Of a stretch of DNA of 8,231 nucleotides, positions 2,243-8,157 are shown in pieces (positions within the stretch are counted from its first letter, which is position 1; each line of letters starts with the position of its first letter). Below the pieces are notes generated by a model. The model was given only the letters and a program-made list of their open reading frames with translations, did no database searches and had not been told where the DNA came from. The position numbers were made by a program, and so were the translations under genes. The stretch comes from a virus (taxonomy: Duplodnaviria; Heunggongvirae; Uroviricota; Caudoviricetes): the IMG/VR virus record IMGVR_UViG_2671180695_000017, one strand, 5' to 3'.

Positions 2243-3525
2243 GTGCGGGTATTACTTCGACCTGTTCTGGTACCGGAACTCGGGCTGGTGATCGTTAAGC
2301 CGGGCCGTGAATCCATGCCGGTATTCCACAATACCCGGGTACTGGTGGAGCCGGAACCGAAAAGCATGCGTAATCTGTCGTCCGGGGTCGTTCCTGCCGT
2401 TCGCCAGCCGCTGGCGGAGGATAAATCATTACTGCCATTTTTCAGCGACGAACGAGTGATTCGTGCTGCTGGTGGCGCTGGCGCATTGTCTGACTGGTTA
2501 CTGCGCCATGTTAAATCCTGCCAGTGGCCACACGGCGATTATCACCACAGTGAAACCGTCATTCACCGTTATGGTACCGGCGCAATGGTGTTGTGCTGGC
2601 ACTGCGACAACCAGCTGCGCGACCAGACCTCCGAATCACTCGGGCAACTTGCTCACCAAAACCTGTTTGCATGGATGATTGACGTCATACGCCATGCAAT
2701 GAATGGCTCGCAGGAACGGGAATTATCGCTGGCTGAATTATCCTGGTGGGCGGTCCGCAATCAGGTGGCGGACGCGCTACCGGAAGCGGTATTACGTCAG
2801 GTACCGGCGCAATGGTGTTGTGCTGGCACTGCGACAACCAGCTGCGCGACCAGACCTCCGAATCACTCGGGCAACTTGCTCACCAAAACCTGTCTGCATG
2901 GATGATTGACGTCATACTCCATGCAATGATTGGCTCGCAGGAACGGGAATTATCGCTGGCTGAATTATCCTGGTGGGCGGTCCGCAATCAGGTGGCGGAC
3001 GCGCTACCGGAAGCGGTATTACGTCGTTCGCTGGGGTTGCGTGCGGAAAAAATCCGCTCAATGTACCGTGAAAGCGACATCGTACCGGGAGAGCAGACCG
3101 CCACCAGCATACTGAAGCAGCGCACAAAAAATCTTGCGCCGCTGCCTCACGCCCACCAGCAAAACCCGCCACAGGAAAAGACGGTGGTCAGCATTGCCGT
3201 TGATCCGGAGTCACCGGCTCAGTATCTCCAGCGCCAGAAATCACAACGGGAAGAGATGCCTGTATACACGCGTTGGGTAAAAACGCAGAAATGCATGACG
3301 TGTGGCAATCAGGCAGATGATCCGCATCACATCATTGGTCATGGACTGGGAGGGATGGGAACAAAGGCTGATGATTTGTTTGTTATTCCGCTGTGCCGTA
3401 AATGCCATAGCGAACTACACGCCGGGGTAAAAGATTTTGAAGAAAAACACGGCAGCCAGCTGTTGTTGCTGATTCGTTTTTTAATGCACGCGAGAAATTC
3501 GGGTGTTTTGAAGTGGAAAGCATAA
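2243..3525 (+). pseudogene. YbcO-like (DUF1364-type) zinc-binding putative nuclease gene with N-terminal extension, frame-disrupted by a 227-bp tandem duplication
   Basis: GTG at 2243 with GGAGG at 2234-2238. The frame-2 ORF 2243..2905 and the frame-1 ORF 2746..3525 encode the same ~75-aa stretch (GTGAMVLCWHCDNQLRDQTSESLGQLAHQNL...AVRNQVADALPEAVLR) because 2573-2799 is repeated at 2800-3026 (227 nt, equal to 2 mod 3). Removing one copy gives a single continuous 351-codon ORF ending at 3525. The C-terminus (CMTCGNQADDPHHIIGHG...IPLCRKCHSELH) has a CxxC...HH...CxxCH motif and sits directly upstream of rusA, as ybcO does in DLP12. Confidence 0.55.
2573..3026 (+). repeat. Tandem direct duplication, 2 x 227 bp, 3 mismatches between copies
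   Basis: Direct comparison: 2573-2799 and 2800-3026 are identical except three substitutions (ctgtTtgc vs ctgtCtgc; atacGcc vs atacTcc; atgaAtgg vs atgaTtgg). Junction ...attacgtc|ag|gtaccgg. Confidence 0.9.
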
Positions 3526-3906
3526 ATGACTGAACGCATAGAATTTGTTTTGCCTTACCCGCCAACGGTGAACACTTACTGGCGTCGTCGTGGCAGCACA
3601 TATTTTGTATCAAAAGCCGGGGAGCGTTATCGCCGGGCAGTGGCGCTTATTGTTCGCCAGCAGCGGCTGAAATTAAGCCTGTCCGGAAGGTTGGCAATAA
3701 AAATTATTGCAGAACCACCGGATAAGCGCCGCCGTGACCTGGACAATATTCTGAAAGCGCCGCTGGATGCGCTGACGCATGCGGGGTTGCTAATGGACGA
3801 TGAGCAGTTTGATGAAATCAATATCGTTCGTGCTCAGCCAGTATCTGGTGGACGTCTGGGGGTGAAGATTTACCCCATAATGCTTGAAGGGCAGGTCAAA
3901 AAATGA
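3526..3906 (+). CDS. rusA: RusA-family Holliday junction resolvase
   Basis: 126-aa protein with PPDKRRRDLDNILKAPLDALTHAGLLMDDEQ and GGRLGV, matching the conserved RusA core as I recall it for E. coli RusA ([23 protein letters not shown]...DD...GGRL). The ATG overlaps the upstream stop (TAAATG). Confidence 0.85.
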   Translation: MTERIEFVLPYPPTVNTYWRRRGSTYFVSKAGERYRRAVALIVRQQRLKLSLSGRLAIKIIAEPPDKRRRDLDNILKAPLDALTHAGLLMDDEQFDEINIVRAQPVSGGRLGVKIYPIMLEGQVKK

Positions 3907-4724
3907 AACTGGAAGATTTACCGAAATACTACTCCCCAAAATCCCCCGGCCTGACTGATGCATCGGCCTCAACGTCGAAAGATGCGCTGAGTATCACTGA
4001 TGTGATGGCCGCGCAGGGCATGACACCGAATCGGGCTGAGATGGGGTTTTCTGCGTTCCTTGGGAAAATGGGCATTAGTATGAATGACAGAGAGCGGGCA
4101 ACAGAATTGCTGACAGAATATGCACTCAGTCGGTGTGATCGCGTGGCGGCGTTAAGAAAACTCCCGGCAGAAATAAAACCGGTAGTGATGCGCATTATGG
4201 CTTCGTACGCTTTTGAGGATTATGCCCGCAGCGCAGCGAGTAAAAAGCAGTGCCCTTGTTGCTATGGGGAAAAATTTATTGAAAGCGTAGTTTTTACAAA
4301 CAAGGTCCAGTATCCGGATGGTAAGCCGCCGGTATGGGCAAAGTGTACGAAAGGTGTGTATCCGTCTTACTGGGAAGAATGGAAAAAAGTCAGGGAGGTG
4401 GTAAAAGTTGCCTGTCCGGAGTGTGGCGGAAAGGGTGAGGTTTCCACCGCCTGTAAGGATTGCCGTGGGCGTGGTGTCGCCATTCATCGTGAAGAGTCGG
4501 TAAAACGTGGTATGCCTGTTATCAGAGACTGCCAGCGTTGTGGTGGTCGTGGCTGTGAAAGACTACCATCAACGGAGGCATTTAATGCCATATGCAAAGT
4601 GACGAGTGCTATCACGCTTGATACGTGGAAAAAATCAGTGAAACGCTTTTACGATACGTTGGTGGTTCGGTTTGACATTGAAGAGGCATGGGCGGAGCGG
4701 CAGTTAAAGAGGGTAACGCGATAG
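3903..4724 (+). CDS. Putative late-gene antiterminator (Q-like) with DnaJ-type CxxCxGxG zinc-finger repeats
   Basis: Position is diagnostic: directly after rusA (ATGA overlap) and directly before a promoter that matches lambda PR' through its -10 and initial transcribed region. The protein carries CPCC plus three CxxCxGxG repeats (CPECGGKG, CKDCRGRG, CQRCGGRG). The N-terminus resembles what I recall of Qin-prophage Q homologues, but that recollection is not secure. Confidence 0.55.
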   Translation: MKLEDLPKYYSPKSPGLTDASASTSKDALSITDVMAAQGMTPNRAEMGFSAFLGKMGISMNDRERATELLTEYALSRCDRVAALRKLPAEIKPVVMRIMASYAFEDYARSAASKKQCPCCYGEKFIESVVFTNKVQYPDGKPPVWAKCTKGVYPSYWEEWKKVREVVKVACPECGGKGEVSTACKDCRGRGVAIHREESVKRGMPVIRDCQRCGGRGCERLPSTEAFNAICKVTSAITLDTWKKSVKRFYDTLVVRFDIEEAWAERQLKRVTR

Positions 4725-4950: not shown

Positions 4951-5148
4951 ATGCTAAAACAGCAGGATATGACAGAAACCGCCAGAGTAGTGTTTAATGA
5001 ATTAAGCGTTACCGAACCGGCGACAGTCGGGGAGATTGCACAGAATACTTACCTTTCACGCGAACGCTGCCAGTTAATACTGACCCAGCTGGTTATGGCG
5101 GGTCTGGCAGACTATCAGTTCGGTTGTTACAGACGCCTTCCGCAGTGA
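4951..5148 (+). CDS. Small putative winged-helix DNA-binding protein (65 aa)
   Basis: ATG at 4951 with AAGGG SD about 8 nt upstream. I prefer this over the tracked GTG at 4864, which has no SD. The stretch TVGEIAQNTYLSRERCQLILTQLVMAGL looks like a helix-turn-helix or winged-helix recognition region. First gene of the Q-dependent late transcript. Confidence 0.45.
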   Translation: MLKQQDMTETARVVFNELSVTEPATVGEIAQNTYLSRERCQLILTQLVMAGLADYQFGCYRRLPQ

Positions 5149-5160
5149 AGGCTTTTTTAT
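5135..5160 (+). terminator. Intrinsic terminator overlapping the stop codon of the small wHTH gene
   Basis: Stem GCCTTC / GAAGGC (5135-5140 pairing with 5147-5152), loop CGCAGT, then TTTTTT (5153-5158). The TGA stop (5146-5148) lies inside the hairpin. Confidence 0.5.
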
Positions 5161-5175
5161 TTGTGGTAAATGGGC

Positions 5176-5206
5176 GGCTGGTGGGTGTTAGGGGCACCCA
5201 CCAGCC
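5176..5206. repeat. Perfect 12-bp inverted repeat with 7-nt spacer in the methyltransferase leader
   Basis: GGCTGGTGGGTG ttagggg CACCCACCAGCC, with no T-run after it. Two further hairpins follow (5248-5266, stem CTGCTTT/AAAGCAG; 5271-5289, stem AGCCT/AGGCT) before the methyltransferase ATG at 5299. Confidence 0.7.
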
Positions 5207-7281: not shown

Positions 7282-7505
7282 CCGGGTATCAGTTAGCGGG
7301 AGAAATTTTTAAATACTTCACAATTCAGGCGGTTGATTGTTGTCTGGTTTGCGGGGAGTTTGTTAAAAGAAACTGGCATGGTGAATCCCCCTGTGCGGAG
7401 GGGCAATCAGCGAGTAGGTATATGGGATAATCGCGGATTCAGGTGCTGGTACTGAATTCACCGGGAGGCACCCGGCACCATGCAATGGCACATAGCGCCA
7501 CTCTC

Positions 7506-7535
7506 CAGCCCCTCTCCGGAGGGGCTGTTTATATT
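7506..7535 (+). terminator. Strong intrinsic terminator (+ strand) between the convergent cargo ORFs
   Basis: Perfect 9-bp GC-rich stem CAGCCCCTC / GAGGGGCTG (7506-7514 pairing with 7519-7527), TCCG tetraloop, followed by TTTATATTGATTTT. The opposite strand lacks a T-tract after the hairpin, so it is oriented to stop + strand transcripts. Confidence 0.55.
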
Positions 7536-7561
7536 GATTTTGTCAGATGTGAGTAAACTCC

Positions 7562-7897
7562 TTATGGACTTTGTTGTTTTAGTCCATAAGGACATATTTG
7601 CAGAGTGCAACGGTTATTAAAGCATTCATTCAATACGTTATCTGTATTTGTAGGGCATTCCTGGCTGTTTTTGATTAAATTCCAGAATGTTTTATTGAAT
7701 GGTACTACGTTGTAAATGGTTACAGGTAGCACTTTGTTATTGAGCATGATGCCTGTGTGAGTCAGTGTAAATATACTTTCAGGAGGTAAGAAAGCATCCG
7801 ATTGATACCAGATTATTAATTTTATTTTACTCCATATGACTGAAAAAGATATTCCGCATGATGGCTGGATAACTGTATCAATCACAATCCACTTCAT
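7562..7897 (-). CDS. Hypothetical cargo protein (111 aa) with C-terminal cysteine cluster, encoded antisense to the late operon
   Basis: ATG (7895-7897 on the minus strand) preceded by AAGGA with a 5-nt spacer. C-terminal C-x10-C-x4-C-x4-C pattern ([23 protein letters not shown]). The last 9 codons and the TAA stop lie inside a perfect 10-bp hairpin (7561-7590). About 33% GC. Confidence 0.45.
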
Positions 7898-8157
7898 TTA
7901 GTTTCCTTGTTTATGCCTTGCTGGTGATGTTCTGAAAAGTATAAATGATATTTTTGATTGTAAACCATAGAGCAGAATTATTTTTCTGATGTTGTTTATT
8001 GTTTATTTAAATGCAGGGTGGTTTATATCTCGTCTTGTAGTTTATCCATGCATATCTGCTTGATGATGAGGTTTTTATTTAAGGTATGGTTTTGTGTTTT
8101 TTCTGTATTACATGTCAGGTATTTTAAAGAATCATTTTTCAGATGGTGGAAAGAACC

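Follow-up and report, generated by a model that had tools for sequence, protein, structure and literature searches.

The only well-supported minus-strand protein gene in the window (the whole stretch of 8,231 nucleotides analysed here, from IMG/VR virus record IMGVR_UViG_2671180695_000017) is almost certainly iraL, a prophage-borne gene that was already characterised and published in 2014. The 111-aa ORF (7562..7897, minus strand, stop included) encodes a protein with the same RefSeq accession as IraL of uropathogenic E. coli CFT073 (WP_000871291.1; identical protein), which is annotated in the potB-island prophage of that strain (locus c1429), and its coding DNA aligned to CFT073 iraL with full identity. 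The gene, its promoter, and its function have been known since 2014, and there is no new biology to claim for them. One lead is left open, an invariant four-cysteine tail that constitutes a testable and so far unaddressed feature of a well-studied regulatory family.

Over positions 7450-8100, DNA 100% identical to the window was present in many complete E. coli genomes, including ST131, with the gene annotated as 'anti-adapter protein IraM'. None of the observations speaks against the identification. The RefSeq label for WP_000871291.1 is IraM, not IraL, and in PHROGs the protein belongs to phrog_4407, listed as 'unknown function'. Identifying the gene as iraL aids the annotation of prophages in ExPEC, ST131, and Shigella. 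The initial annotation had described a cargo gene and missed that it is the known RssB anti-adaptor IraL. The signal-peptide and transmembrane checks proposed there are beside the point, because IraL is a cytoplasmic RssB anti-adaptor.

The protein matched NCBIfam NF007393 (IraM subfamily) over residues 1-110 with 162 bits, against a cut-off of 121. A Pfam scan (hmmscan, E <= 1) returned no family for it; in precomputed annotations, PF11183 (PmrD) was assigned to all IraL homologues. When the frame was compared with alleles of 89% and 76% identity and with iraM, dN/dS was 0.10-0.29, which on these alignments indicates a conserved frame under purifying selection. The 111-aa minus-strand ORF with a strong ribosome-binding site was found as described, with AAGGA 6 nt before the ATG. 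Its description as the only cargo ORF with a canonical AAGGA site was correct as to the motif but not as to its uniqueness in strength, since a strong Shine-Dalgarno sequence, AGGAGG, also precedes the DUF977 gene. Similarly, iraL is not the only minus-strand gene called in the window, but the only well-supported one: in identical DNA, RefSeq has two further small CDSs on this strand, and both are doubtful. The coordinates of the features are collected in Table 1.

Table 1. Features of the iraL region and its surroundings in the window (coordinates, strand, and basis of each assignment).
Feature	Position	Strand	Basis
iraL CDS	7562..7897	-	NF007393 match, WP_000871291.1, CFT073-identical DNA, dN/dS 0.10-0.29
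Shine-Dalgarno AAGGA, 6-nt spacer to ATG	7904..7908	-	read from sequence
33-nt 5' UTR, transcription start at 7930	7898..7930	-	published 5'-RACE sequence match
Putative -10 hexamer TATACT (-13 to -8)	7938..7943	-	position relative to mapped start
Candidate -35 TTTACA, 15-nt spacer	7959..7964	-	read from sequence
Codons for the C81...C102 tail (CP-x9-C-x4-C-x4-CPYG)	7592..7657	-	conserved in 40 diverse relatives
Perfect 12-bp hairpin, 10-nt loop, spanning codons 102-111 and the stop	7559..7592	-	isolated hairpin, -17.5 kcal/mol, z = -6.3
GC-rich STnc100 terminator	7506..7527	+	terminator scan, Rfam, folds on both strands
iraL module (moron), 624 bp	7533..8156	.	segment missing from related phages without iraL
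Q-type antiterminator (+ strand terminators lie beyond it)	3903-4724	+	

The function of the gene is known from CFT073, in which iraL (c1429) was characterised by Hryckowian et al. 2014 (PMC4045071). [quoted passage not shown] IraL is a paralogue of K-12 IraM. That the protein binds RssB and stabilises RpoS, and where its transcript starts, was thus demonstrated by others on a protein identical to IraL of the window (PMC4045071). Two further reports describe a rise of iraL mRNA on a shift to 37 °C (PMC12890032) and higher IraL when fur is mutated (PMC7157518). No Fur box with at least 12 of 19 matches was found in 7898-8156, and the rise of IraL in the fur mutant is probably an indirect effect.

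In the favoured reading, iraL is a moron by which a lambdoid prophage brings about lysogenic conversion. Its sigma70-type promoter fires against the Q-dependent late operon, and the lysogen expresses the gene in ordinary growth. The PmrD-like beta-barrel core (residues 1-78) of the cytoplasmic protein binds RssB, the response-regulator adaptor that passes RpoS on to ClpXP. With RssB occupied by IraL, RpoS is not delivered, its half-life is longer, and its log-phase level is higher.

The 5' end of the gene was located with published data. The CFT073 5'-RACE start sequence ACATCACCAGCAAGGCATAAACAAGGAAAC (30 nt; PMC4045071) matched 7930-7901 on the minus strand with no mismatch. The proposal that the gene has its own promoter in the AT-rich 7900-8000 region was borne out by this match, which places the start of the CFT073 gene at 7930 on the minus strand. 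Sigma70 elements had been predicted at the iraL promoter (PMC4045071), and the hexamers given in Table 1 are our candidates for them. The sigma70 consensus scan used here requires a spacer of 16-18 nt and missed the iraL promoter because its spacer is 15 nt. Two other promoter sites returned by the same scan were inconsistent with the mapped start and were rejected.

Between the window and CFT073, the promoter and 5' UTR differed by three substitutions, at 7958, 7931 (-1), and 7900, so the expression strength of the window allele is not directly documented. In some alleles (L017/L018), the candidate -35 hexamer TTTACA is changed to TTTATA (position 7960). A -35 point mutation of unknown effect has also been described for the iraL2 copy of ST131 (JJ1886) (PMC4045071).

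The window represents the late-regulatory region of a lambdoid prophage and carries hok/sok and QueH, DUF968 and RusA, Q, a DNA methylase, two tRNAs, STnc100, iraL (minus strand), and nanS-p. The last of these encodes a SASA esterase, and the lysis genes follow further on in a matching genome. The plus strand carries Q, the tRNAs, nanS-p, holin, and lysozyme. The orientation of iraL against late transcription, as initially annotated, was supported, since Q, the terminators that follow it, and the lysis genes share the plus strand. In addition to the protein, the coding DNA, and the transcription-start sequence, CFT073 iraL shares the same lambdoid-prophage neighbours (DUF3927 gene, STnc100 region, nanS-p/DUF1737, and holin). 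The upstream prophage is different, with a methylase and two tRNAs in the window versus an IS200 and three tRNAs in CFT073.

Homology to the iraL-less phages PhiR5_1 and VT1-Sakai stops at 7532 and restarts at 8157, and because of these breaks 7533-8156 is regarded as a discrete module. The GC content was 33% for the module and 34.5% for the iraL CDS, against 48.9% for the window. The segment is a textbook moron that runs counter to Q-dependent late transcription: it separates genes that are direct neighbours in related phages, has its own promoter, and deviates in base composition. The initial suggestion of a self-contained cargo gene agrees with the own promoter and with the module boundaries at 7532/7533 and 8156/8157. 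The 3' end of the moron carries a stable hairpin, without a U-tract or a short loop. Like morons of the lambda bor type, iraL is AT-rich and autonomous, is driven by a promoter of its own, lies between late-region genes, and is expressed in the lysogen. Lambda bor is also antisense to late transcription. The cargo of iraL is different from bor and stx in that its product acts on the control of host proteolysis rather than being a toxin or a surface protein.

Among 5426 complete E. coli genomes, 1446 carried iraL with its promoter, in up to 3 copies each, as did 4 sequenced phage genomes; a genome scan with the alignment of close relatives yielded only 7 loci. In Stx phages, stx occupies the same slot (Q / tRNA / [cargo] / nanS-p / holin). 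In some Stx prophages (L011-L013; gene 3001-3336), an iraL-like allele of 76% identity directly separates stxB (87 aa) from nanS-p and is convergent with the toxin operon. The presence of iraL in the stx slot and of the 76% allele beside stx shows a slot that trades cargo rewiring host physiology.

Directly downstream of iraL, in convergent orientation, an STnc100/PasD-family sRNA was identified at 7347-7536 on the plus strand (Rfam RF02076, 132 bits; family described in bioRxiv 10.64898/2026.05.13.724894). Its terminator lies 35 nt past the iraL stop, and the 3' ends of iraL and STnc100 are about 25 nt apart. This terminator was retained downstream of every iraL-like allele examined, other contexts included, and may possibly serve as a second 3' barrier for iraL transcripts. 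A RefSeq pseudo-CDS opposite the sRNA is probably spurious.

The inverted repeat at the 3' end of iraL is real and non-random. A perfect 10-bp hairpin over the stop codon had been noted initially; the perfect pairing, the 10-nt loop, and the position of the stop were as described, but the stem is actually 12 bp long (TCCTTATGGACT/AGTCCATAAGGA, 7559-7570 and 7581-7592). The TAA stop (7564-7562) lies inside the 3' arm of the mRNA hairpin. This element may be read as a lineage-specific 3' stem-loop that could act as a weak terminator or as a 3'-end protector, preventing iraL transcription from entering the convergent STnc100 gene. Neither of the roles suggested initially, stabilising the mRNA 3' end or serving for recognition, gained comparative support, with the hairpin conserved only in near-identical alleles. 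In the near-identical alleles sampled, the stem was perfect, carried a G-U change (T7583C, 3 loci), or had an altered terminal pair. The alleles of 89% and 76% identity carried uncompensated stem mismatches and folded no better than shuffled sequences (z = -0.6 and -1.5, respectively). When local folds were calculated at 16 family loci, the window-type allele alone was significant (z = -5.8; others -2.2 to +1.0). Pairing maintained by compensatory changes, as expected of a conserved RNA structure, was not found, and none of the 15 other loci had a significant fold. A Citrobacter homologue with two apparent compensatory changes was rejected as a case of conserved pairing (fold z = -0.2), and 14 further loci yielded nothing consistent.

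The hairpin may instead be a by-product of the sequence with no function of its own, possibly mildly useful, and we put this at a little under an even chance. It would have arisen from the near-palindromic Pro-Tyr-Gly codons together with a partly complementary, read-through ancestral 3' UTR (TCCATA), and the perfect 12-bp repeat of the dominant allele would be a coincidence. At most other family loci, just a 4-bp mini-palindrome CCNTANGG is present, which is intrinsic to the Pro-Tyr-Gly codons (CCN-TAY-GGN). The allele of 70% identity stops after K106, yet contains CATCCATA just downstream, so the 3' arm predates the 4-codon extension. From this comparison, the 3' arm looks like an ancestral 3' UTR that was read through in the iraL lineage, adding QQSP. 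The mismatched, poorly folding 89% and 76% alleles and the restriction of a significant fold to the window-type allele also argue for a by-product. On the other side, when the window was shuffled 300 times with dinucleotides preserved, only one shuffle contained a perfect stem of 12 bp or more with a loop of 3-15 nt, the sampled near-identical alleles keep the stem with no more than G-U or terminal-pair changes, and K-12 iraM has an imperfect stem at the same place, with the stop in the loop.

Rather unlikely, in our judgement, is that the hairpin is the terminator or insulator of the moron (or its 3' protector), ending or pausing iraL transcription about 25 nt before the STnc100 3' end. Classically, a moron comes with both a promoter and a terminator of its own (Hendrix and colleagues). 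A stable stem (-17.5 kcal/mol) is found at the gene 3' end, followed by AGUUUACU, and the convergent sRNA terminator lies directly beyond it. The intrinsic-terminator scan of the minus strand, however, did not call the hairpin. A Rho-independent terminator is expected to have a GC-rich stem, a loop of 3-8 nt, and a U-tract; this hairpin has 5 GC pairs of 12, a 10-nt loop, and a tail, AGUUUACUC, with 4 U in 9 nt. Because the stop codon is in the 3' arm, such a terminator could not form until the terminating ribosome had cleared the site. Nor is the hairpin kept in diverged iraL-like alleles opposite the same convergent terminator.

The fold of the protein was examined by structure search and modelling. 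The IraL sequence matched PDB 8TWD (IraM residues 1-78 bound to RssB) with E = 9e-32. An AF2 model built from the alignment of 40 relatives had a mean pLDDT of 85, with values above 87 for residues 1-80 and of 55-69 for the tail; an earlier model from 16 close sequences (pLDDT 55) was set aside. The predicted model superimposed on 8TWD chain A with an rmsd of 1.2 A and a TM-score of 0.90 (Foldseek), and on PmrD structures with a TM-score of about 0.7. In the model, the core of IraL is a PmrD-like beta-barrel as in 8TWD. Fourteen IraM residues contact RssB (PMC10844676), and 10 of the 14 are identical in IraL, the other four being substituted (T13S, L75I, H63N, and I64V).

IraL and K-12 IraM (YcgW; PDB 8TWD) share the length class, the PmrD-like core, the four-cysteine tail, and most RssB contacts. 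They differ in that IraM ends at K107 and IraL has four extra residues (QQSP), that iraM lies in another genomic context, next to e14, and that IraM is stress-induced and PhoP-induced whereas IraL is active in log phase. In two-hybrid assays, IraL bound the N-domain of RssB only, whereas IraM bound both domains (PMC4045071). The alternative that the ORF encodes K-12-type IraM, an anti-adaptor activated by PhoP at low Mg2+, and not the log-phase paralogue IraL, is scarcely credible and was rejected: the RefSeq product name, the NCBIfam IraM subfamily match, and a PhoP-box-like direct repeat TGTTTAttgttTATTTA (7993-8009, plus strand, 11 of 12 matches, the sole such site in the window) favour it, but the ORF is identical to CFT073 IraL and only 62% identical (gap-free) to K-12 IraM, its promoter region is unrelated to that of iraM, the BLAST groups of iraL and iraM do not overlap and IraL is active without added stress (PMC4045071), and the PhoP-like match arose by chance in 27 of 200 window shuffles. 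The repeat, of which 0.14 copies would be expected in a window, is located 63-79 nt upstream of the iraL start. For iraM, control by PhoP is known; for iraL, it is unreported.

PmrD, a connector protein which protects phospho-PmrA, has the same small beta-barrel fold and, as IraM does, binds a response-regulator receiver domain (PMC10844676). It is different from IraL in sequence (14-21% identity), is without the four-cysteine tail, and has PmrA and not RssB as its partner. RssC of Salmonella is counted with the wider 'IraM' family of Enterobacteriaceae, which the profile search joins to IraL, and relatives in Salmonella, Citrobacter, Enterobacter, Cronobacter, and others have the same CPGN...C...C...CPYG tail. 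An identity of 49.3% has been reported between rssC and iraL (PMC4045071). Non-Escherichia relatives in the family alignment were 20-41% identical to IraL, and a separate Citrobacter relative was 54% identical. The wider IraM family has no 3' hairpin in common with iraL.

The C-terminal C-x10-C-x4-C-x4-C cluster pointed out initially, which was suggested to bind metal or form disulfides, is present in IraL as C81-x10-C92-x4-C97-x4-C102. A profile search of 1.84 billion representatives yielded 93 relatives at E <= 1e-3, and those with names came from Salmonella, Citrobacter, Enterobacter, Cronobacter, Intestinirhabdus, Dryocola, and others. Conservation was determined from an alignment of 40 full-length members with 20-76% identity to IraL. 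The only invariant columns were W72, C81, C97, and C102, while C92 and P103 were 97.5% conserved. Every one of the 40 members had at least four tail cysteines in the pattern CP(G)N-x7-C-x4/5-C-x4-CP(Y/F)G. Judged from this alignment, the four-cysteine tail is the most conserved element of the IraM/IraL/RssC family, and a functional role for the four cysteines is likely because they are conserved family-wide.

The tail has been treated differently in the only crystal structure, that of IraM, for which residues 79-107 were removed as proteolytically unstable and the tail was described as flexible and less conserved (PMC10844676). A PDB profile search for the tail recovered only the IraM core and PmrD, with no solved structure covering the tail, and no PDB or Pfam match spans the cysteines. 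A full-text search of the searchable literature found no discussion of the cysteines of IraM or IraL. A classical zinc ribbon or knuckle, which needs two CxxC (or CxxH) pairs, was rejected, as the spacing C-x10-C-x4-C-x4-C holds no CxxC. The most economical reading of the conserved pattern would be a metal-thiolate site, structural or regulatory. The more specific proposal, a site for Zn or possibly Fe-S that sets the stability of the anti-adaptor or works as its redox switch, is one that we consider unlikely. If it were true, metal or oxidative status would govern RpoS stabilisation by these anti-adaptors in addition to transcriptional induction.

Several other elements were observed in the window outside the iraL module. 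A hok/sok type I toxin-antitoxin locus was found at 1476-1801 (Rfam sok, 120 bits), with hokD annotated in identical DNA, and the gene for the QueH epoxyqueuosine reductase at 722-1408, in the early-right region of the prophage. The DUF968 gene contains a 227-bp tandem duplication (2573-2798 and 2800-3025, 99% identical; region 2573-3025), by which it is split into overlapping ORFs at 2243-2905 and 2746-3525; in a closely related prophage, DUF968 is one intact CDS of 1056 nt. A second perfect 12-bp inverted repeat (GGCTGGTGGGTG/CACCCACCAGCC, 5176-5206, loop 7, without a T-tract) closely follows a terminator-like site (5135-5152), precedes the methylase gene, and gave a weak, sub-threshold Rfam P26 match on the minus strand.
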